DNA from: Eledone cirrhosa
Taxonomy: Eukaryota
Reading direction: 5' to 3'
Assembly: GCA_964016885.1 (NCBI GenBank)
Contig: OZ024747.1
Span: forward strand, 33,046,001 to 33,110,000
DNA: 64,000 nt
Translations under genes and position numbers: made by a program
Shown: positions 28,458 to 55,125 of the stretch, piece after piece
How the letters are laid out: the number at the start of each line of letters is the position of its first letter
Position numbering within the stretch: position 1 is the stretch's first letter
The notes under the pieces: generated by a model
What the model saw: the letters and a program-made list of their open reading frames with translations, nothing else
What the model was told of the DNA's origin: nothing
Database searches by the model: none

Positions 28458-28516
28458 GCTGTTATATATATTTCGGTGATAACTATTATGCAACAGTTAT
28501 GACCTCATCAGACGGC
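28458..28516 (-). ncRNA. Type I hammerhead motif, family H4
   Basis: Minus strand GCcGT-CTGATGA-GGTcATAACTGTT gcat AATAGTTATcACC-GAAA-tatata-TA|ACAGC. Confidence 0.8.
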
Positions 28517-28724
28517 TAGAATTTTAACAAAAAAAAACAGAAATCAAAGAAAAATATTCCTTTTGTTGTTTAAATTCATTGATATTCCCTGGGCTGATAT
28601 TTGGTGTTGCTCTCTCAAAGCACCAGTGACATATACTTTGAGAGAGCAACACCAAATATCTATGAATCGAAACAACAGAAGTAAGCTTTATTTCTTCTTT
28701 ATATTTTTTTCTGTTCAACTTTTA

Positions 28725-28783
28725 GATGTCTGATGAGGTCATAACTGTTGCGTAACGGTTATCACCGAAATATATATAACAGC
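28725..28783 (+). ncRNA. Type I hammerhead motif, family H4
   Basis: GaTGT-CTGATGA-GGTcATAACTGTT gcgt AACGGTTATcACC-GAAA-tatata-TA|ACAGC; long stem II, palindromic loop III. Confidence 0.8.
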
Positions 28784-28833
28784 GATTATGAATAAATGAA
28801 GTTAACTTGTACTTCATGATTATGTATATATAC

Positions 28834-31048: not shown

Positions 31049-31972
31049 TTATCAATGTTTGTACATATAATTAACCTCCTATTCAACTGAACAATCATAT
31101 ATATATATATATATATATTGATGTTGTGAGCAACAGTTTCGTATTTACAGGGTGTAATGGATGCGACTGGTATTATAAGAGAATTTTACAAAAATTAAAA
31201 TTAAAATTAAAACCACAGAGTGGAATACATGCGACAGATAATGCAAGAGAATAGTCTAATAATTAAAGAGGCATTGAGAAAGAAGCATTAACACCTTATT
31301 AAACTCTTTTGAAAATGATCTAATTAAACTAGTTAAGAACATAAGGTACAAAAAACATCGTAATAGAAACAATACCTTATTAAACAACCCAAACTTCACT
31401 ATTAAAGGATTTAATAAATATAAACAAATTCTAGTACATGCAGATAAAACTAAATATATATATAGCTTAGATTACGATACATATAGAAAATTCAGATATA
31501 AAGAACTGCATAGGAGCTATAAGAAAACTACTACTAAAAAACTAGAAGATATAAATATAGAAGGCCGTAGTATAGTGTGTAAATTGGGACTTCAGAGACA
31601 TACACAGCCATTTCCCCCTTACCCCCCCCCCCCCCTCAAGATTCTCTCTGAAGGACCATAAAGAAGACTTCATTAGTAACCCTTCGATAAGACTAATTTG
31701 ACATTGATATTATCAGCAAGAAAATATTAGATAGAATCATCCCTCAATTTAAGCACAAAATATATCTTAACCAATGGGGAAATACAGGTGAAGTTATTGA
31801 ATGGTTCAAGGATATTAAAGAGAATTAAAAAAATTTGTATACAATTTGATATCAAAATAGTAACCTGACTAGATCCAAAATTGATGTCATACTTGCGGCC
31901 CGAAAAACCATAATTAGATTTGAAGATCAAATATGGACCTGCAAGGATACGCATAACAACTTTGACATAAGT

Positions 31973-32608
31973 ATGGGATCTAGTGACTCGGCGCAGGTCA
32001 GTGATTTGGTGGGCCTATATCTACTGAATGAAATTCATAAGAATCTACCCTACCTCAATGGTAGTTCATACCGCGATGATGCACTACTCCTTATAGACTA
32101 TACAAAATTTAATATAGAAAGAACTAGGAAACAATTACATAACATTTTCAAAAACTTCAACTTAAGTATCACCTTAGATAAAAACACTAAAAACGTGAAC
32201 TTCCTTGATGATACCCTTTACCTGGACTCTAAAATATACACACCTTTTCATAAACCAAACGAAAAACTAATTAATGTGAATACCAACTCTAAACACCCTA
32301 AATCCATATCAAACTCAATTACTAAAGGAATATCTAATATAACCTCTAATCTATCATATAATGAAACCATATTTAACAATAATACACAATACTATAATGA
32401 GGCCTTAGCTAAATCAGGACATAAGAATGGGATTGAATTCATACCTATAAAATCATATAGTTACAACATTATTTCTCACAATATGGCCATGAGGAAAACT
32501 AATAAAAGTACTAGCCACTCTAACTCTAATACGAAGGGTAATATTAAACTTAACTCGCACCAGAGTAAACACCACAATAATAATATAAACAGGAATACAA
32601 ATACCTAA
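31973..32608 (+). pseudogene. PLE reverse transcriptase C-terminal half/thumb
   Basis: YRDD, VNFLD..L, PFHKPNEKL..VN..SKHP..I, YNEAL.KSG. Confidence 0.88.
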
Positions 32609-32909
32609 AAAACATTACAAAAAACAAAAATAGAAGAACTAATACATTCTTCAATCCCCTTTCAATCTAACCGTCTCTACCAACTTGCCTAAGGCTTCCT
32701 TCTCAATCTTAGAAAAAAACTTCCCATCGGCCAGAAATACTATAATCTTATCAATAAAAATACCATTAAAATCTCTTACTCTACCACACCTAACATCGCG
32801 TACCATATAGCTAGTAGTAATAAAAGGAAGATTAATAATTATTTCCAACTAATTAAAACACAACAGGAAGTAAACTTAGTACCTGTAAATCCTAGTAGTA
32901 ATAGTAATA

Positions 32910-33452
32910 ATGGTAATAGCACTAATGAAATCAATAACAATAGGAATGACAACCATCATTACCCTAATGCTGTCCCAGACTTCTACACAACATAGTAACC
33001 AGCAAGCAAACATACAGAATAAATGTAACTGTAGAACTAATAGAACTTGTCCCTTAGGTAATAATTGCTTAATCAAAGACATCATTTACTCATGCACGGT
33101 CAACGCAAACAACTCTTCTAAAACATATATTAGCTCTACTTCGAACTGCTTCAAGACGAGATACAACTCGCACCTCCACTCTTTCAAAAAACACAATCTA
33201 GCCAACACTTCTTCTTTATCTAGCTACGTACACTCTCTGAAAACTAGGAATAGACCATTTACACTTCAATGGAAAGTAGTAGGTAGGGCTATATCGTATG
33301 AACCACCGAATAAATTGTGTAACCTCTGTCTTCTAGAGACCCGTACTATAATCTTTTCGAAACCAGACCCGCTAAATAGAAAATCAGAGGTGTTTTCTTC
33401 ATGTGAACCCCACTACCGACACTCGTTCCATAACTTTAAACCTAGCTGCTAG
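32910..33452 (+). pseudogene. PLE Cys-rich linker plus GIY-YIG endonuclease
   Basis: CNCR...CPLG.C, IIYSC..., TYIS.TS, FKTRY, W.VV.RA..Y, CNLCLLE, LNRKSE.FS.C. Confidence 0.88.
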
Positions 33453-35088: not shown

Positions 35089-35212
35089 TATATATATACA
35101 ATAAAGTATGTCGATAGAATCATTTGATAAAATCTATACACCATCTCCTCTCCCAATCAGCATCATCAACCACATAAAAAAACAATTAAACAAGGCTATA
35201 AGATTAAAAGCC

Positions 35213-35959
35213 ACCGAAAACGATAAACGGAAAAAAATGAAACGAAATTTCATTTCTCACTTCTTCCTTTGTCTGGGTTGAAGAAATGCGCAACGATGGT
35301 TGCTAGACACTGTACGGCTTAATTCGGGATGTTTGTTTACAAACACACCGAGCATTATAATAAATGTTCGGTGAATCCATACGTACATATATATATGTGT
35401 GCATGTATGTATATATATATATATACATACTACTGTACGTCTGTATACATATATGTATGTACGTATACATACTTATATTTAAGTAACAGCCGTACTAAGA
35501 GTGAGAAATGAAATTTCGTTTCATTTTTTCCGTTTATAATTTTCGGTACCCCGGCCTATTAACTCACTCAATATACAAATTAGACTGCTCAGCCGTTAAT
35601 ATGCATAAGGAAAGTATATACTTTCAGACGTTCAATCATCAGGCAGGAAGGTATACGTTGCTGACGATAGCTAATAAGCTATAACTAGTACAGCGTTCCT
35701 TTGTCAGGGTTGAAGAAATGAGCGACGATGGTTGCTAGACACTGTACGGCTTAATTCGGGATGTTTGTTTACAAACACACCGAGCATTATAATAAATGTT
35801 CGGTGAATCCATACGTACATATATATATGTGTATATGTATGTATATATATATACATACTACTGTACGTCTGTATACATATATGTATGTACGTATACATAC
35901 TTATATTTAAGTAACAGCCGTACTAAGAGTGAGAAATGAAATTTCGTTTCATTTTTCCC

Positions 35960-35965
<6 letters not shown>
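35213..35965 (+). mobile_element. H6 unit: partial tandem (period about 432 bp) with short 5' inversion and degenerate HHR at 35655-35696
   Basis: 35267-35537 repeats at 35699-35965; 35213-35261 is an inverted copy of about 35499-35547; ACGTTG-CTGACGA-TAGCT aata AGCTA-taa-ctag-TA|CAGCGT (GAAA damaged). Confidence 0.75.
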
Positions 35966-36005
<40 letters not shown>

Positions 36006-36904: not shown

Positions 36905-37643
36905 GAAATAAGTGGGATCAGATGTTGTTTACTCGAGAGAAGGCTACGTTGGTATGGTCACGTGATGCGCATGAAGGACGATAGCTGTATAACAAAGTGC
37001 AGGGCAATAAAGATAGACGGTAGCCACGGAATAGGCAGACCCAGAAAAACCTGGGACGAGCTGATAAATTCCGACCTCACACACTTACACCTCACCAAGA
37101 CAATGTCACTGGACAGAGAACTTTGGCGGTACTCAGTAATAGAGAAGACCCGCCTTAACTAAATACAAAGTAAAACCTACTACAGTCAGTAGGCATCTCT
37201 AACAAAATACACCCCCGTCCCACCCACCCCACCCCATCCACACTGCCCCTTTCAATGTAAAGTTATGTTGGTGCCACAACATCCAGGCCTAAACAAATGA
37301 GATCGTGTAGTGTCACGTCAAAAAACACACAGTTCACGCTGTAATGTGGCCGTGTAGGCAATACGGTAAAAACCTCCCAGCCCCACACTGTAAATGTGGT
37401 TGGTGTTAGGAAGGGCATCCAGCTGTAGAAAACCCGCCAGACAGTCCACGCTGTAATGTGGCCGTGTAGGCAACACGGTAAAAACCTCCCAGCCCCACAC
37501 TGTAAATGTGTTTGGTGTTAGGAAGGGCATCCAGCTGTAGAAAACCCGCCAGATAGTCCTATGCGAGCAAGATAATCACTCTTGCCTCAAGTGGGAAAAC
37601 CCCCGTCCAAACCCATGCAAGCGTGGAACACGGACGTTAAACG
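36905..37643 (+). mobile_element. 5'-truncated RTE LINE 3' end with a 121-bp tandem duplication in the 3' UTR
   Basis: RLRWYGHVMRM..DSCI.KC...GRPRKTW, matching 15522-16157; repeat 37326-37444 / 37447-37553. Confidence 0.9.
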
Positions 37644-37752
37644 CTTATTATAGCGCCCGCTTTGTTCGTTTGTAAACAAACTGAACAGCCTGAATTTATG
37701 CCGCACGGTGTTAAGGCAACCACGTCACCTTTTGTTCAACACTGACACAGGA

Positions 37753-37795
37753 ACGATGTACTAGTTTCAAGCTTGTTAGCTATCATCAGAACCGT
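37753..37795 (-). ncRNA. Type I hammerhead motif, family H6
   Basis: Minus strand ACGGTt-CTGATGA-tAGCT aaca AGCTt-GAAA-ctag-TA|cATCGT. Confidence 0.78.
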
Positions 37796-37932
37796 ATACC
37801 CATCTGCCAGATAGTTGAACGTTCGAAAGTATATACTTTCCTTATGAAAATTAACGGCCGAGCAGCCTAATAATAAGCAGCCTATAATAAGCGTCCGCTA
37901 AACTGATACGTACATATATGTATGTGTACCTG

Positions 37933-38000
<68 letters not shown>

Positions 38001-38236
38001 TGCTACTGTACGTCTGTATACAGATATGTATGTACGTATACATACATACTTACATTTAAGTAAGTGCCGTACTAAGAGTGAGAAATGAAATTTGGTTTTC
38101 ATTTTATTACAACTCATCGCCTTCGGTGCGCCTGACCGATTTAACTCACTCGATATGCAAATTAGGCTGCTCAGCCGTTAATTTTCATAAGGAAAGTATA
38201 TACTTTCGAACGTTCAACTATCTGGCAGATGGGTAT

Positions 38237-38279
38237 ACGGTGCTAATGATAGCTAACAAGCTTGAAACTAGTACATCGT
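38237..38279 (+). ncRNA. Type I hammerhead motif, family H6 (G5A damaged core)
   Basis: ACGGTG-CTaATGA-tAGCT aaca AGCTt-GAAA-ctag-TA|CATCGT. Confidence 0.7.
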
Positions 38280-38430
38280 TCCTGTGTCAGTGTTGAACAA
38301 AAAGGTGACGTGGTTGCCTTAACACCGTGCGGCATAAATTCAGGCTGTTCAGTTTGTTTACAAACGAACAAAGCGGGCGCTATAATAAGCGTCCGCTAAA
38401 CTGATACGTACATATATGTATGTGTACCTG

Positions 38431-38518
<88 letters not shown>

Positions 38519-38671
38519 TGCTACTGTACGTCTGTATACATATATGTATGTACGTATACATATATGTATGTACGTATACATACATACTTACATATAAGTG
38601 CCGTACTAAGAGTGAGAAATGAAATTTCGTTTTCATTTTATTACAACGTATATATATTTATATATATATAT

Positions 38672-38786
<115 letters not shown>

Positions 38787-38813
38787 TATATATTTATATA
38801 TATATATATGTTA

Positions 38814-38890
<77 letters not shown>

Positions 38891-39105
38891 GTTAAAAATG
38901 TACATCCACATATGTATACTGAAATACTAGTATGCATATGAATACACACACGTATACATATGTAGATGTACCGAGTTTTTCACTGGTCACTTTACTGTGA
39001 GTGTCCAGCTATTCTGTATGTAAACACACAGACAAACCGGTTTTTAGAGTCATACTGGTTTTTGAGGAAACACCTTTCCTCTATTCTCCAGAAAGCCAGA
39101 CAAGG

Positions 39106-39150
39106 AATATTGAACTAGTTTCGTTGTTGTTACAACTCATCAGCAATATT
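39106..39150 (-). ncRNA. Type I hammerhead motif, family H5
   Basis: Exact reverse complement of 39908-39952. Confidence 0.85.
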
Positions 39151-39907
39151 TACCTATCTTCCGGCCTTTCTAGAGAATCGTAAAAGCACATATCGTTATA
39201 TGCTTTTTCTATGAAAATTAGTAGTGGGCAGACTAATTTGCATAGAGCGTGAGTACGTACCGGTTCAACGGAGACGATAAAAACAAATAACGAAACGAAA
39301 TTAAATTTCGTTTCGTTTGTAACTCACTTTTGTATGACTGACGCTTAAACAATTAAGTTAAAAATGTACATCCACATATGTATACTGAAATACTAGTATG
39401 CATATGAATACACACAAATTAGTCTGCCCACTACTAATTTTCATAGAAAAAGCATATAACGATATGTGCTTTTACGATTCTCTAGAAAGGCCGGAAGATA
39501 GGTAAATATTGAGGAAAGGTGTTTCCTCAAAAACCAGTATGACTCTAAAAACCGGTTTGTCTGTGTGTTTACATACAGAATAGCTGGACACTCACAGTAA
39601 AGTGACCAGTGAAAAACTCGGTACATCTACATATGTATACGTGTGTGTATTCATATGCATACTAGTATTTCAGTATACATATGTGGATGTACATTTTTAA
39701 CTTAATTGTTTAAGCGTCAGTCATACAAAAGTGAGTTACAAACGAAACGAAATTTAATTTCGTTTCGTTATTTGTTTTTATCGTCTCCGTTGAACCGGTA
39801 CGTACTCACGCTCTATGCAAATTAGTCTGCCCACTACTAATTTTCATAGAAAAAGCATATAACGATATGTGCTTTTACGATTCTCTAGAAAGGCCGGAAG
39901 ATAGGTA

Positions 39908-39952
39908 AATATTGCTGATGAGTTGTAACAACAACGAAACTAGTTCAATATT
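39908..39952 (+). ncRNA. Type I hammerhead motif, family H5
   Basis: AATATTG-CTGATGA-GTTGT aaca ACAAC-GAAA-ctag-TT|CAATATT; perfect 7-bp stem I, 5-bp stem II, AACTAGTT palindrome. Confidence 0.87.
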
Positions 39953-40274
39953 CCTTGTCTGGCTTTCTGGAGAATAGAGGAAAGGTGTTTCCTCAAAAAC
40001 CAGTATGACTCTAAACACCGGTTTGTCTGTGTGTTTACATACAGAATAGCTGGACACTCACAATAAAGTGACCAGTGAAAAACTCGGTACATCTACATAT
40101 GTATACGTGTGTGTATTCATATGCATACTAGTATTTCAGTATACATATGTGGATGTACATTTTTAACTTAATTGTTTAAGCGTCAGTCATACAAAAGTGA
40201 GTTACAAACGAAACGAAATTTAATTTCGTTTCGTTATTTGTTTTTATATATATATATATAAATGTATATATATT

Positions 40275-40311
<37 letters not shown>

Positions 40312-40605
40312 AATTGTACATCTATGTATATGTGTGTGTGTGTACGTGTGTATATATGTATATATAGGTGTACGTATGATTATATATGTGTGTGTGCGCC
40401 TGTGTATGCATGAGAGCGTGTGGGTGTATGTGTGTGTGTATATATATATATAGAGAGAGGGAGGATAACAATTGTTAGACCGTAAATAAATCTCCTTTTT
40501 TGTACTGTTGACCATGTTATTCTCCACTTTTTCAATTATATATATATATTTGTGTGTGTATGTATATGTATATATATATAAAATATATATATATATATAT
40601 ATATG

Positions 40606-40684
<79 letters not shown>

Positions 40685-41256
40685 ATATATTTGTATATGT
40701 GTATGTGTATGTATATGTCTATATGAATACGTATGTATGTAAACACATATATGTATATGTGTATGTATATATTTGTATGTATGTATATGTCTATACGTAC
40801 CATTATATATGTTTGTTGTGTGTGTGCCTGCCTGTGAGTGAGTGCGTGTATGTGTATGTACGTGTGTAAGTGAGCCCGTGTGTGAATGTGTTTGTCGACA
40901 CCTGAATCCAACAAATGAATCTGTTGATGGAACCCTTTCTGCCTTTGTCACCCTTAAAGATTTATCTTCTAAATAATTTGCCTTTTCTTTAAACCATTGA
41001 ACCCCACCCATCCTGTAGACACCTGTTTTACAGCCATTGTTACTTTAAGTGATAAACAAGGATTGGTATTCCAATTTTGAACTTGTTTACAGTATTCTTT
41101 CTGCTTTTGTTAATTTTAGAACTTTAAAGAATTAGCTTTTAATGAACTCCCTTTTCTTTAATTCCTTCAACCAATGACCTACACCCATCCCAATCCCCAC
41201 CCTCTCCTACCACCAGAAAAGAAAAGATATAAATACCACCACCCACTCGGACAGCC

Positions 41257-41307
41257 AGCTTCCTGATGATTTCTCACGAATGAAACAGTTCTAGTCCTGT
41301 AGAAGCT
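41257..41307 (+). ncRNA. Type I hammerhead motif, family H1 (in unit 40907-41390)
   Basis: AGCTTC-CTGATGA-tTTC tcac GAAt-GAAA-CAG ttctagtc CTG-TA|GAAGCT. Confidence 0.87.
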
Positions 41308-41727
41308 CTTCTATATTAAAACATTTATCCTCTGCAATGTATTGAGTACTTTACTTACTGTGGCTACCTCTGATTTAACCCGGAATAACTTATGTATATA
41401 TATATAAGTGGTAACAAAATATTGTTATAGGTAAATATCGTTATAGGTTGTGCATACTCTGTATAATGGATAGTTTTAGCGTACGGCGTTGTTTGACTCA
41501 ACAAGAGGTTTACGTAGTTGGCGAGTGTATGATTTCACTTGTATTCCTATATAAGTTTATCTTGGAGTAATATAATTGAAAAAGTGAAGAATAACATGGT
41601 CAAAAGTACAAAAAATGGATTTATTTACAGTCTGACAATTGTTTCACTCATGAGTTGTCTAAACATTGCTGAACACTTGGAGCTCTGCCACTCAATTTCA
41701 AATGCGTTGTTAGCTCAACCAGATCAT

Positions 41728-41802
<75 letters not shown>

Positions 41803-42412
41803 CAATGATATTAATAAATGGAAACTATATTTATAAAACCATATTTATTCTATTATATATATTTCAAAGGTACCAAAACATCAGAAAAAATACAAAGTTT
41901 GTTTTATAAATATTGACATACCCTGGAATGAGACCTTAACAGTTCAAGTTTCGACTGGCGAAACTTGAACCGTATATAATATATATGAATATTATATATA
42001 TATATATATATATAATTAGGGGATGAAATAGGAGTAAGGCGTAACCCGAGAAGACAACTTGACACTGCACACATTACTAGTAGCAGACGACGAAATAAGA
42101 ATATATCTAGAATAGAGGAAAGGTGTTTCCTCAAAAACCAGTATGACTCTAAAAACCGGTTTGTCTGTGTGTTTACATACAGAATAGCTGGACACTCACA
42201 ATAAAGTGACCAGTGAAAAACTCGGTACATCTACATATGTATACGTGTGTGTATTCATATGCATACTAGTATTTCAGTATACATATGTGGATGTACATTT
42301 TTAACTTAATTGTTTAAGCGTCAGTCATACAAAAGTGAGTTACAAACGAAACGAAATTTAATTTCGTTTCGTTATTTGTTTTTATATATATATATATAAA
42401 TGTATATATATT

Positions 42413-42449
<37 letters not shown>

Positions 42450-42743
42450 AATTGTACATCTATGTATATGTGTGTGTGTGTACGTGTGTATATATGTATA
42501 TATAGGTGTACGTATGATTATATATGTGTGTGTGCGCCTGTGTATGCATGAGAGCGTGTGGGTGTATGTGTGTGTGTATATATATATATAGAGAGAGGGA
42601 GGATAACAATTGTTAGACCGTAAATAAATCTCCTTTTTTGTACTGTTGACCATGTTATTCTCCACTTTTTCAATTATATATATATATTTGTGTGTGTATG
42701 TATATGTATATATATATAAAATATATATATATATATATATATG

Positions 42744-42826
<83 letters not shown>

Positions 42827-43398
42827 ATATATTTGTATATGTGTATGTGTATGTATATGTCTATATGAATACGTATGTATGTAAACACATATATGTATAT
42901 GTGTATGTATATATTTGTATGTATGTATATGTCTATACGTACCATTATATATGTTTGTTGTGTGTGTGCCTGCCTGTGAGTGAGTGCGTGTATGTGTATG
43001 TACGTGTGTAAGTGAGCCCGTGTGTGAATGTGTTTGTCGACACCTGAATCCAACAAATGAATCTGTTGATGGAACCCTTTCTGCCTTTGTCACCCTTAAA
43101 GATTTATCTTCTAAATAATTTGCCTTTTCTTTAAACCATTGAACCCCACCCATCCTGTAGACACCTGTTTTACAGCCATTGTTACTTTAAGTGATAAACA
43201 AGGATTGGTATTCCAATTTTGAACTTGTTTACAGTATTCTTTCTGCTTTTGTTAATTTTAGAACTTTAAAGAATTAGCTTTTAATGAACTCCCTTTTCTT
43301 TAATTCCTTCAACCAATGACCTACACCCATCCCAATCCCCACCCTCTCCTACCACCAGAAAAGAAAAGATATAAATACCACCACCCACTCGGACAGCC

Positions 43399-43449
43399 AG
43401 CTTCCTGATGATTTCTCACGAATGAAACAGTTCTAGTCCTGTAGAAGCT
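43399..43449 (+). ncRNA. Type I hammerhead motif, family H1 (duplicate)
   Basis: Identical to 41257-41307. Confidence 0.87.
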
Positions 43450-43869
43450 CTTCTATATTAAAACATTTATCCTCTGCAATGTATTGAGTACTTTACTTAC
43501 TGTGGCTACCTCTGATTTAACCCGGAATAACTTATGTATATATATATAAGTGGTAACAAAATATTGTTATAGGTAAATATCGTTATAGGTTGTGCATACT
43601 CTGTATAATGGATAGTTTTAGCGTACGGCGTTGTTTGACTCAACAAGAGGTTTACGTAGTTGGCGAGTGTATGATTTCACTTGTATTCCTATATAAGTTT
43701 ATCTTGGAGTAATATAATTGAAAAAGTGAAGAATAACATGGTCAAAAGTACAAAAAATGGATTTATTTACAGTCTGACAATTGTTTCACTCATGAGTTGT
43801 CTAAACATTGCTGAACACTTGGAGCTCTGCCACTCAATTTCAAATGCGTTGTTAGCTCAACCAGATCAT

Positions 43870-43922
<53 letters not shown>

Positions 43923-43937
43923 CAATGATATTAATAA

Positions 43938-44853
43938 ACTGCACACATTACTAGTAGCAGACGACGAAATAAGAATATATCTAGAAAAATAACAAGGTTC
44001 AATGCACCGGACTCGAAGCATGTATGCACCAATGTGCCAGGCCTCTTCTTCAGGGCATTGGACGAGTGTTTCCCGGCATCGCACAGATACCACAAAATAT
44101 TCAACCGCCACACCGTGAAGTTCTCCTTTTCCACGGCACCTAACATGGCAGACTACATGGCCAAGGCCAACGGAATGAAAATGAGGACACCCCATCGCCA
44201 AACTTTACAGGCCTCGGGCACATCGGCTGAGGGGAGCGCATGGGGAAGTGGCTAGGGGTTCTGAAGATGTGCTTGGGGTCGGAGCTGTGGCCGTGGAGGA
44301 CGCAAAACTTGACAACAGAGACCAGCAAGTAGTGAACACTCAGTCCACCAATATGCCAGAAGACCATATGAGGACCGGGGAGAACCCAAATAAGACGTCA
44401 GGCCCACATGAAAGGAATGACAAAATGATGCACGGACATGTGACTGCCGTGTAGGTGAGCATTGCCCTCTGCAGGGAATGTGCCTGAGAAAGGGCGTTGT
44501 CTACAGATGTGTGGTTACCACGCAAAATGATAGGCACACCCACGACTTTTAAATCGAGGATATACAACCACAAGACTCATTCAAAGACAGGAACAAGAGA
44601 CACATCACCAGACTGGCGGACCTAATATGGGGACTCAAAGACAGTGGCACGGAGTTTGACCTCAGCTGGAGTATTGTCCAGCGCGCGAATGCATACTCGG
44701 CTGGCGAGATTAGGTGCAGGTTGGGCCTGTCCGAGGCTATGGAGATAATAAAACTAAAGGTTGACGCAGTCATCCTCAAATCTGAACATAGCCTGCAGAC
44801 ACCAACGTAAATGCATGCCCTCCGCTTTAGTGATACCGGATGGGTCTATCTAA
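43938..44853 (+). mobile_element. GC-richer PLE 3' fragment (linker plus GIY-YIG); its 5' piece lies at about 42016-42112
   Basis: RKITRFNAP..KHVCTNVPGLFFRALDECFP.SHRYHKIFNRHTVKFSFS..PNMA, CDCR...CPLQG.C, VVYRC, FKSRIYNH, LADLIWGLK, WSIV.RA.AY. Confidence 0.85.
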
Positions 44854-47026: not shown

Positions 47027-49055
47027 CTAGTGATCGATCGCATGTTGCAAAACTGCACCAACAGCATGATCGAATGCATCAACAGATAAGGAAAGTCGTG
47101 CGTTTGCAACAAGATGGGCAAGGAAGGAAACTTTAGCTATCTCAGACTTGACGGATTCAAAAGATTGCAAGGCATCGGCAGAAAGTGAAATAGGAGCATC
47201 TTTCTTTTTTGGAGCCTTTAAAAACTGTGTCAAGGGGATCAACTTGTCCGCACAGTTAGGAATGAAACGACGATAAAAGTTAATTAATCCCAAGAAATGG
47301 CGTAATTGTTTCAAGGATGTTGGTTGTGCGATATGCTGAATCGCTTCTACCTTAGATGGCAAAGGTCGAATGCCTTCTGAATCTATAAGATGTCCAAGGA
47401 ATTCCAGTGAATCTGTACCAAACACACATTTAGCTGGGTTGATTCTGACCTGGTACCATTGGAGACGTTGAAATAACTGGGATAGATGTTGATGATGATG
47501 TTCAACTGTGTCACTGGCTATCAGGAGATCATCTACGTAAGCAAACACGAAATCCAATCCACGCGTGACTTCATCGATAAAACGTTGGAACGTACTAGAG
47601 GCGTTCCGCAAACCAAAAGGCATGGACAGAAATTCAAACGAACCAAAAGGGGTGGTCACAGCTGTTTTTGGTATGTCTTCTGGATGCATGGGTATTTGAT
47701 GGTAAGCGCGTACCAGATCTATTTTAGAAAATATCTTGCATCCATGCAGAACGGATGAAAAATCATGTAAATTTGGTAGAGGATAACGATCAGGGGTAGT
47801 GATAGCATCAAGTTGTCTATAATCTCCCACAGGTCTAAAATCCGCCTCACCCTTACGAGCCAAATGAAGCGGATATGCGCATGGGCTGGTGGACGGTCGT
47901 ATAAGACCGAGCTGGAGCATGTGCTCGAACTCGTTTCGTGCTTTTTTTAGTCTATCCGGAGCCAACCTTCGTGGACGAGAGAAAACAGGTGGACCAGTTG
48001 TTGTAACGAAGTGTTGATTCGAGTGGGCTGCTTGGGTAGGTTTAAATGAAATATCCGTTAACTCGGGAAACGAAGTAAGGAGTGCATGAAACTGGCTTCC
48101 AGCGGCAGCCACAAAAAATAACGGACTTACAGTAGTAGTGGTAGATTTACGAGTAGGCGTAGATAAGGATGTTGTACTATCCTCAAGTTTCTGGTTCCCG
48201 ATATCTACCAAAAGTGAATAGTGCTGTAAGAAATCCGCACCGAGAATAGGATGAGGTAGGTCAGCAATGACAAAAATCCATTTGAAATCTCGACGCAAAG
48301 CTAGGTCCAATGATAAAGATATCTGTTTTATAGGAGACTGGTTTACTGCATACAAGGAAATACCGGAAAGAGTTGGCTTCGTAGAGTTGAACCAAAGAGG
48401 CCAAATACTGCAACTAAATCCTGTGTCCACCATAAATGATTTGTTTGAAACTCGGCCTCTGATGAAGAAAGCACGATAAGGTGAATTGTTAAGGGAGAGG
48501 TCTGCTGTGTTCATACTCTCCAAACTTAGTTTTTTCGATGCCCCAAAAGGGCAGGGCTGAATACAATGTTTCGCCTTTTCACGAAAACGCATGTGATACC
48601 AACACATAGACGAGTTGTTGGCGGGGAGGTTGGCGCGACGGTGAAAGGAAGAAGACCGACTTCGTGAACGCCATCTAGATGGCGTGCAATCCCTACATGG
48701 TTTAGCTACTTTCCTAGTTAACGCCTCAATGGCTCTCAACATTGAGTCCTCACGAGGTGAAGCAGGCTGGGTTTTGAAAGCAGAAGAGGCAATGACCGAA
48801 TCAGCCGAGGTAGGTTCTCTAGAAAATTCCATAATTCTGTCCGCAGAGGCAGCAATTTGTTCTATCGAACTGGTGTCAACCGTATTCGCCAATATGGTTT
48901 GCACTTTGGTTGGCAAATGGGAGAAGAATAACTTTTTTACGAAGGAACTGTCTTCGGACGCAACATCATTGAGTTCACGGATACGCCGTAAAAACTCTGT
49001 AGGAGTTGTGTCCCCCAGATTTTCCTCCTCTAATAAGGAACGAAATTTACTCTGA
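47027..49055 (-). mobile_element. Ty3/Gypsy gag-pro-RT fragment (open frame), truncated in RNase H; no LTRs or integrase seen
   Basis: ORF 47027..48916: CWYH..F...A..C..PC, VDTG protease, [59 protein letters not shown]. The frame reads open to about 49055. Confidence 0.95.
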
Positions 49056-49254
49056 GAATTGCTGCTTCTACAGTATCCTCAGAGCAGAATGGTTCCATTC
49101 GGTAGAACGGTAGAAGCAGCATTTGAAAATTGAGTTTCTGCAAATAATTACCAATTTGCGCATAGCATGACTAGGCTGTATAACTACTGTTGAAACATTT
49201 GTAAGCACTCGGAATAAATTACCTTTTTATGATGTCTACCTGTTATTATTCATT

Positions 49255-54480: not shown

Positions 54481-55125
54481 ATGTACCATTATATATGTTT
54501 GTTGTGTGTATGCCTGCCTGTTTGTGCATGCATGTATGTGTGTGTGTGTACGTGTTTAAGTGATCCCGTGTGTGAATGTGCTTGTTGACACTTGGAATAT
54601 ATATTAAGTGAAACTTCACAATAAGGGGACTCACCCCAACACTTTAATCTGTTGATGGAACCCTTTCTGCCTTTGTCACCCTTATTTCAGCCTTAAAGAA
54701 TTAGCTTCTAAAGAATTTCCCTTTTCTTTAAACCAATGAACCCCACCGATCCTGTAGACACCTGTCTTACAGGCATTGTTAGTGATAAACTAAGATTGGC
54801 ATTCCAAATTTGAATTTGCTTACAGTATTGTTTCTGTCTTTGTTAATATTATTGCTTTAAAGAATTAGCTTTTAATGAACTCCCTTTTCTTTAAATCCTT
54901 CAACCAATGACCTCCACCCATCACAATCCCCACCCTCTCCTACCACCAGAAAAGAAAAGATATAAATACCACCACCCACTTGGACAGCCAGCTTCCTGAT
55001 GATTTCTCACGAATGAAACAGTTTTAGTCCTGTAGAAGCTCTTCTATATTAAAACATTTACACTCTGCTATGTATTGAGTACTTTACTTACTGTGGTTAC
55101 CTCCGATTCAACCCGGAATAACTTA
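54481..55125 (+). mobile_element. H1 unit with CCAAT/TATA and HHR at 54990-55040
   Basis: TATAAATA at 54961; AGCTTC-CTGATGA-tTTCtcacGAAt-GAAA-CAGttttagtcCTG-TA|GAAGCT; ends CCCGGAATAACT(TA)n. Confidence 0.85.

Follow-up and report, generated by a model that had tools for sequence, protein, structure and literature searches.

The locus at 38885 to 40247 of the window (the whole 64,000-nt stretch of DNA that was analyzed) is a two-armed, head-to-head insertion of a non-coding hammerhead repeat, H5, in (TA)n. One arm ends at a site that we call S and the other at a site that we call T, and the insertion was probably made in trans by a Penelope-like enzyme with reverse transcriptase (RT) and GIY-YIG endonuclease. 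The layout, the fixed ends, the near-identity of the arms, and the unclustered 5' stops are observed directly. The insertion is real and recent, the repeat is abundant and non-autonomous, and structural tests on the sequence liken the insertion to those of Penelope-like elements (PLEs). Neither the strand switch nor the unit without a ribozyme is surprising in itself.

Structure of the locus

The locus consists of two arms of a 466-nt monomer that meet head to head at 39415/39416 within (TA)n. The H5 repeat period is 466, and monomer numbering runs from position 1 at window 39708 to position 466 at window 40173. Arm A (38885 to 39416, minus strand) is 532 nt long and contains monomer 401 to 466 followed by 1 to 466. 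Its outer 3' end is site S and is untailed. The plus arm (39415 to 40247, plus strand) is 833 nt long, and its outer 3' end is site T. The arms overlap by 2 nt (CA) at the head-to-head junction (39415 to 39416), and the 3' ends of both point outward into (TA)n. The first-pass annotation had near-identical monomers flipping at 39415/39416, as is the case: arm A is 99.6% identical to 39642 to 40173, with two differing positions. The left flank is a (TA)n-rich tract (38431 to 38884) that also contains the 3' end of a neighboring H6 insertion (38647). The right flank is a (TA)n tract at 40245 to 40295.

The plus arm contains unit B (39416 to 39818, plus strand), which is 403 nt long and lacks 63 nt at a deletion junction at 39511/39512. 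It also contains a complete 466-nt monomer in the phase that ends at site S (39708 to 40173, plus strand), which is highly structured as RNA by computation (z of -10.9). A 74-nt tail runs from site S to site T (40174 to 40247, plus strand) and contains a conserved hairpin at 40207 to 40235. Copies of a 29-nt inverted repeat start at 39741, 40207, and 39289 (minus strand). AAACCGGTTT is present at 39034, 39549, and 42153; a C at 40016 breaks it in the last unit. No ORF of at least 170 aa was found within 38885 to 40233, and the locus has no RT plus GIY-YIG ORF like that of an autonomous PLE.

A partial copy of the element, from monomer 264 to site T (42109 to 42385, plus strand), heads a tandem duplication of 39971 to 42108. 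The duplication (39971 to 42108 and 42109 to 43986) begins within the last unit of H5, and its two copies overlap by 4 nt where they join. Its second copy lacks 41820 to 42063 and, outside TA tracts, has one substitution (40016). The duplication may be genuine, or the second copy may represent another haplotype.

Hammerhead ribozyme

Type I hammerheads are present at 39106 to 39150 (minus strand) in arm A, where the motif is intact, and at 39908 to 39952 (plus strand) in the plus arm. The copy in the plus arm, read on the plus strand, has stem I at 39908 to 39914 and 39946 to 39952, the core CTGATGA at 39915 to 39921, stem II at 39922 to 39925 and 39932 to 39935, and GAAA at 39936 to 39939. 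The predicted cleavage site follows GTT, at 39945. The motif thus has the type I core elements CTGATGA, GAAA, and an NUH triplet (GTT); the triplet is GTC in an H5 subfamily and GTA in H6. Stem III is replaced by the palindrome ACTAGT. RNA folding places the hammerhead at the tip of a predicted long stem.

The core with its stems was unaltered in 84 of 103 unit passes of the first sample of loci described below. Six of the 11 pairs of stems I and II are changed on both sides among six related sequences from H5, the H5 subfamily, H6, and H35. In the same comparison, which covers only these six related sequences, 84.8% of cells in the two stems are paired, against 21 to 49% in slid controls. An Rfam scan at the gathering threshold gave 0 hits. 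A scan by E value matched Hammerhead_HH9 on both intact copies, with 37.7 bits (gathering score, 52) and an E value of 9.6e-7. MicroRNA matches in that scan were rejected as TA-repeat noise. The initial description of H5 as a hammerhead retro-repeat is supported.

The palindromic stem III would require a second copy for pairing, and an intermolecular duplex is predicted at -8.0 kcal/mol. Any self-cleavage would probably occur as a dimer through stem III. Dimer dependence of the hammerhead is described for amphibian retrozymes in passages of PMC7229834. Activity is not to be assumed, as one of nine predicted dimers was cleaved according to sections of a recent preprint (bioRxiv 10.64898/2026.07.22.740005). 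Two of the three units at the locus that reach the hammerhead site keep it. These two lie on opposite arms, and the locus departs from the rule of "two consecutive units" that those sections of the preprint give for an active copy.

Two fixed ends in most insertions

The two-armed layout recurs at dozens of further loci in the assembly, so it is not in kind a local assembly quirk. Two samples of loci were scored. The first came from a similarity search; removal of one duplicate left 37 loci. It proved biased toward the rare words of the query unit, and a second, position-ordered sample was therefore taken, consisting of the first 26 insertions listed on contig C1. Ends were classed as S at monomer 465 to 6 and as T at 69 to 74.

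An inverted 5'-truncated copy beside a partial tandem, the insertion form of PLEs, was found at 29 of 37 loci in the first sample and in 22 of 26 insertions in the C1 sample. The other eight loci of the first sample were one-armed, and the other four C1 insertions were single. All 26 two-arm loci of the first sample with both ends intact, the present locus included, were S+T, and three had a broken or foreign end. In the C1 sample, all 15 full two-arm loci were S+T, five had a mini arm (about 7 to 20 nt) of the other class, and two had a broken end. The probability of 15 S+T loci is about 3e-5 under an independent 50% choice of end. A search with the deletion breakpoints retrieved L166, which is S+T, and L167, the sole T+T insertion seen. 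In total, 42 of 43 two-armed insertions with both ends intact are S+T and thus have a tail at one end only. Site T lies 74 nt downstream of site S across the conserved hairpin, and each class is found on either side of insertions. The strand switch that the first-pass annotation singled out is real. It is also the ordinary form of a PLE insertion and is found in most copies, which that annotation missed.

Related families gave the same result. In H6, a distance of 59 nt separates the two ends of that family, and one of each is present in 10 of 10 cases among 23 insertions; these were motif hits read by eye, with false hits removed by eye. A third family has one of each end in 8 of 8 cases among 14 loci. 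A related hairpin lies between the two sites in both H5 and H6. A DNA search with the tail region as the query gave no matches and was uninformative. Per-insertion counts of the two ends, or such layouts for retrozymes, were not found in titles and abstract openings of a largely non-subscription literature.

A satellite-like tandem array that was inverted later by a DNA rearrangement, or a misassembly, is hardly credible as the source of this pattern. The layout at the locus was read from the assembly, and the repeating variant patterns in the long arrays L025, L053, and L162 suggest some later expansion at the DNA level. Against both readings, the outer ends are fixed at two sites next to (TA)n, and this holds for three families and for dozens of loci dispersed in the genome. 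Apparent target duplications of about 10 to 14 nt, seen where the flank is unique (L039 and L045), also argue against them.

Two further observations concern individual loci. L167 (G000:C1:350051.5 kb, 1137 to 1653) has a plus arm that also lacks the hammerhead, with a jump from monomer 207 to about 403. L032 and L034 are separate loci with one common head-to-head junction (monomer 86 with 309, 8-nt overlap) and with the S and T arms swapped.

Arm identity, template, and mechanism

The two arms of an insertion differ at 19 of 4,651 sites (0.4%) in the C1 sample, compared with 2 to 5%, or about 3%, to other loci, and at 44 of 8,977 sites (0.5%) in the first sample. The arms therefore come from one RNA variant or were homogenized later. 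High identity had been taken initially as a sign of a young insertion. With two arm differences the insertion does look recent, but such identity is typical of the family (0.4%) and gives no date.

We consider it unlikely that the locus was formed by a single priming, in which the first cDNA folds back, its copy becomes the inverted arm, and endonuclease cleavage of that copy creates the second fixed end. Such self-priming would account directly for the identity of the arms. It was proposed in passages of PMC3846280 for rotifer PLEs, which have the same layout, and endonuclease resolution of the tail appears in sections of PMC8557442. Some junctions lie on palindromes (L155 and L159), the arms of L040 share unit-specific variants in order, and one arm is containable in the other at 18 of 25 loci and 8 of 12 loci in the two sets tested. 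The remaining loci, 7 of 25 and 4 of 12, have arms of which neither could be contained in the other. A fold-back copy cannot yield these 11 of 37 tested loci, since their arms are unable to be copies of each other, and they support two syntheses. Parts of PMC11167929 also map both tail boundaries to internal RT start sites, with hammerhead cleavage not needed.

Foreign second arms were found at L053/L060, L049, L055, L046, L074, and L081. They include a PLE ORF (L053/L060), another PLE 3' end (L049), another hammerhead family (L055), a LINE-like 3' end, and an H35/H6 chimera (L081). The PLE ORF, the other PLE end, the other hammerhead family, and the chimera would fit an origin in which each priming used a different RNA molecule and the asymmetry of an enzyme pair set the site for each. 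We regard that origin as quite improbable. Arms of the same family share locus-specific variants despite many subfamilies, L055 is S+S, and composites could also arise by deletion between neighboring insertions.

The 5' stops of the C1 sample are unclustered. No 20-nt window contains more than 6 of the 43 (P = 0.56), and none of them comes within 5 nt of the site of predicted cleavage. Arms at the surveyed loci extend to 15 and more units. Because arms run through many ribozymes and no stops fall at the cleavage site, the template was not a cleaved linear monomer. A circle and an uncleaved multimer both fit. Head-to-head junctions in the first sample have overlaps of 1 to 13 nt, or inserts. 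Among 12 junctions of the C1 sample, five overlap, two are blunt, and five have 1 to 11 extra bases.

Apparent hot spots of substitutions and 5' stops at monomer 309/310 and 356/357 (nominal P values down to 1e-11) were rejected as an ascertainment artifact, because the query unit bears rare bases at both sites and the search favors rare words. The variants and the stop cluster are absent from the C1 sample.

Unit-specific variants are mirrored between the arms in the same order at L040, and at one site in L052. Variant patterns repeat along the arm in L025, L053, and L162. These patterns point to multimer templates, conversion, or later DNA-level expansion.

The likely source of the insertion is a PLE enzyme acting in trans on one RNA; in favor of this, the genome has abundant intact PLE-like ORFs that end in (TA)n. 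Perhaps as a dimer, the enzyme would bind the hairpin that separates S from T in the RNA, and it would cut both strands of the TA tract. Of the two cut 3' ends, one would then prime a cDNA at S and the other a cDNA at T. Both cDNAs would copy the same RNA species, either a circular monomer or an uncleaved multimer. They would stop at unfixed places and be joined head to head through a 0- to 13-nt overlap or a short insert. Against this mechanism stand the T+T insertion L167 and the S+S composite L055. The tails, at 74 nt in H5, 59 nt in H6, and about 118 nt in the third family, are longer than the published 30 to 40 nt. A comparison with one intact PLE-like family and three foreign partner arms turned up no autonomous element bearing a related repeat. 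The identity of the arms could also be explained by gene conversion between inverted arms. In sections of PMC11167929, start sites did not differ between the two strands in vitro. The use of one of each start site on a single RNA variant gives a prediction for the existing in vitro PLE system with single target molecules. With one of each end used almost strictly in three families, and both arms from one RNA variant, a feature already known in qualitative terms becomes a model that can be tested.

More tentatively, a PLE dimer that straddles the hairpin might use both of its RT sites simultaneously on a single circular retrozyme RNA, each primed by one strand of the cut (TA)n, as a double rolling-circle insertion. 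This version is possible but doubtful. If true, PLEs would act directly on metazoan retrozyme circles, and the genome would preserve a record of the PLE integration complex in the one-of-each rule.

The 63-nt deletion

Unit B lacks the equivalent of 39915 to 39977, beginning at the first base of CTGATGA, just as the first-pass annotation had it; one G is ambiguous, and 39914 to 39976 is an equally good placement. The deletion ends 32 nt past the predicted cleavage site and is centered on it, with 31 and 32 nt on either side. The centering may be chance. Looking for the same deletion elsewhere had been suggested as a check and turned up none, as the exact junction occurs once in the genome. The loss is a private event. 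No other ribozyme loss was found among the 103 unit passes of the first sample, save a 3-nt gap, or in the second sample.

The earlier proposal was that RT skipped the folded ribozyme. In the long stem, the 5' strand survives the deletion, and the core and the 3' strand are lost. This geometry misfits the skipping of a folded hairpin, since skipping would take both strands. The breakpoints are also no hot spots; genome-wide junction counts are 1 for the right breakpoint, 2 for the left (this locus included), and 3 for a control position. L167 jumps from the identical left breakpoint. The proposal is upheld only in part. In favor of a template jump at the time of insertion, the three jumps seen (this locus, L033, and L167) all lie less than 100 nt from the head-to-head junction, a zone that makes up at most 12% of the 92.8 kb of arms surveyed; only two of the three are independent of the choice of locus.

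The deletion junction creates a 9-bp inverted repeat, a feature of 2.4% of random deletions that was noticed post hoc. It hints at a trace of snap-back re-priming.

Stalling of RT where the ribozyme stem begins was considered and rejected. Three of 70 segment starts fall at 269 to 272 (P = 0.02), but genome-wide there was one match, compared with three for the control. Intact counts for this test were alike in the sample (68 and 70). The pattern requires two mismatched bases and consequently fails to match the junction of the locus itself.

Since the three jumps lie near heads, we lean toward a template jump, by RT or in repair, during finishing or joining of the heads. A later repair deletion is less probable, though still a serious candidate, and an assembly error is very unlikely. 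Purified PLE protein inserts hammerhead-dead RNA in vitro (portions of PMC11167929), and the ribozyme-less unit therefore says little about mobility.

Related families and candidate partners

A 23-mer that spans the start of the hammerhead has 9,213 matches in the genome at one mismatch or fewer, and its reversed control has 0. H5 consists of tandem non-coding monomers with a type I hammerhead per unit and a GC content below 45 to 50%, as in retrozymes. H6 and the element at 35.2 to 36.0 kb are homologous to H5, with 62 to 63% identity over 430 to 630 nt and E values of 1e-25 to 1e-42, which upholds the early suspicion that H5 and H6 are related families. A similar sequence in H6 had also been reported. 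One-base variants of GAAATGAAATTTCGTTTC do occur in H6; the exact form is in the 35-kb element.

H6 (37641 to 38647; 1,411 first-look candidates) and H35 (35200 to 36000) are related families with the same layout. The neighboring H6 insertion is also head to head, its plus arm ends at the H6 T site, and the H6 monomer contains an internal (TA)n tract. Further short hammerhead-like repeats are present at 12516 to 12717, 14848 to 14914, 41257 to 41389, 43399 to 43531, 54990 to 55122, and 28472 to 28824. Some are exact head-to-head palindromes.

A large family, with 60,148 first-look candidates when relatives are counted, includes the foreign arm of L060. The family has intact ORFs of about 785 aa that end in (TA)n. 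No Pfam hits were found on two pieces of the L060 copy, and no PDB hit was found for the ORF of the family. The ORF has Atlas neighbors at 0.96 to 0.99, and in most of their clusters a minority of the members have RVT_1 or GIY-YIG. H5 has no DNA similarity to the one intact family examined outside TA tracts and none to three foreign partner arms. The family is at most a candidate mobilizer of H5.

L136 (G000:C1:91.47 to 91.49 Mb) is a PLE-like tandem array with a period of about 3.5 kb and open frames of 784 to 786 aa. The canonical CTGAnGA...GAAA was not found on its sense strand. The window contains a broken PLE-like ORF at 31850 to 33452 (plus strand), whose RT and endonuclease pieces resemble L136 by eye. 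It also contains a 683-aa open frame at 47027 to 49078 (minus strand), which we take to be a gag-pol piece of an LTR retrotransposon. Fragments at 9.7, 16.8 to 19.0, 20.4 to 21.1, 25.1 to 27.3, and 49.2 to 49.9 kb are presumably LINE-like RT and endonuclease sequences.

Comparison with known systems

LINE-1 twin priming also joins two primed cDNAs head to head, and the target lies next to the 3' end of each. Its second priming site is variable, whereas H5 has both sites fixed.

Among Chlamys elements, the non-autonomous ones such as MRC1 are similar to H5 in being non-autonomous PLEs with multicopy head-to-tail insertions (passages of PMC8557442). In the same passages, Chlamys elements and Naiad lack canonical hammerheads, and elements of the MRC1 type resemble the 3' end of their partner; no such partner was found for H5.

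Endonuclease-positive PLEs (Penelope/Poseidon, Neptune, Nematis, and Naiad) share several features with H5 in the sections cited from PMC8557442, PMC3846280, and PMC11167929. They have the head-to-head inverted 5'-truncated copy, partial tandems, a one-ended tail, a repeat that contains a hammerhead, targets that are AT-rich or (TA)n, and short overlaps or palindromes at the junction. The text consulted in PMC8557442 gives (TA)n targets for Naiads and, for PLEs, a 30- to 40-bp tail that is often one-ended. It states the formation of the inverted arms and tail to be open. In parts of PMC11167929, both strands of the target are cut and extended by purified PLE protein, for which a dimer is predicted. 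H5 differs from these elements in having no ORF, a longer tail, and arms that can both be multimers.

Metazoan non-LTR retrozymes (PMC7229834; Li, Clavereau and Pollet 2026) are described in the portions consulted as tandem non-coding monomers of a few hundred nucleotides with low GC content, a type I hammerhead per unit, and high self-pairing. They are defined as forming circular RNA in passages of PMC7229834 and are proposed to be non-autonomous PLE derivatives. The H5 monomer is longer than the 170- to 400-nt RNAs and 150- to 450-bp repeats given in the cited part of Cervera and de la Pena 2020 (PMC7229834), and it falls within the 51 to 972 bp in the corresponding part of the preprint (bioRxiv 10.64898/2026.07.22.740005). 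Inverted arms, tails, and (TA)n targets, as seen in H5, do not figure in the accounts of retrozymes in the sections of these two sources considered here; "inverted" and "microsatellite" have 0 occurrences in the available text of PMC7229834. The sections of the preprint state the movement of non-LTR retrozymes to be open and link retrozymes to PLE pLTRs by co-occurrence and phylogeny. The thousands of young H5 copies with a PLE insertion signature are structural evidence for the link between retrozymes and PLEs.
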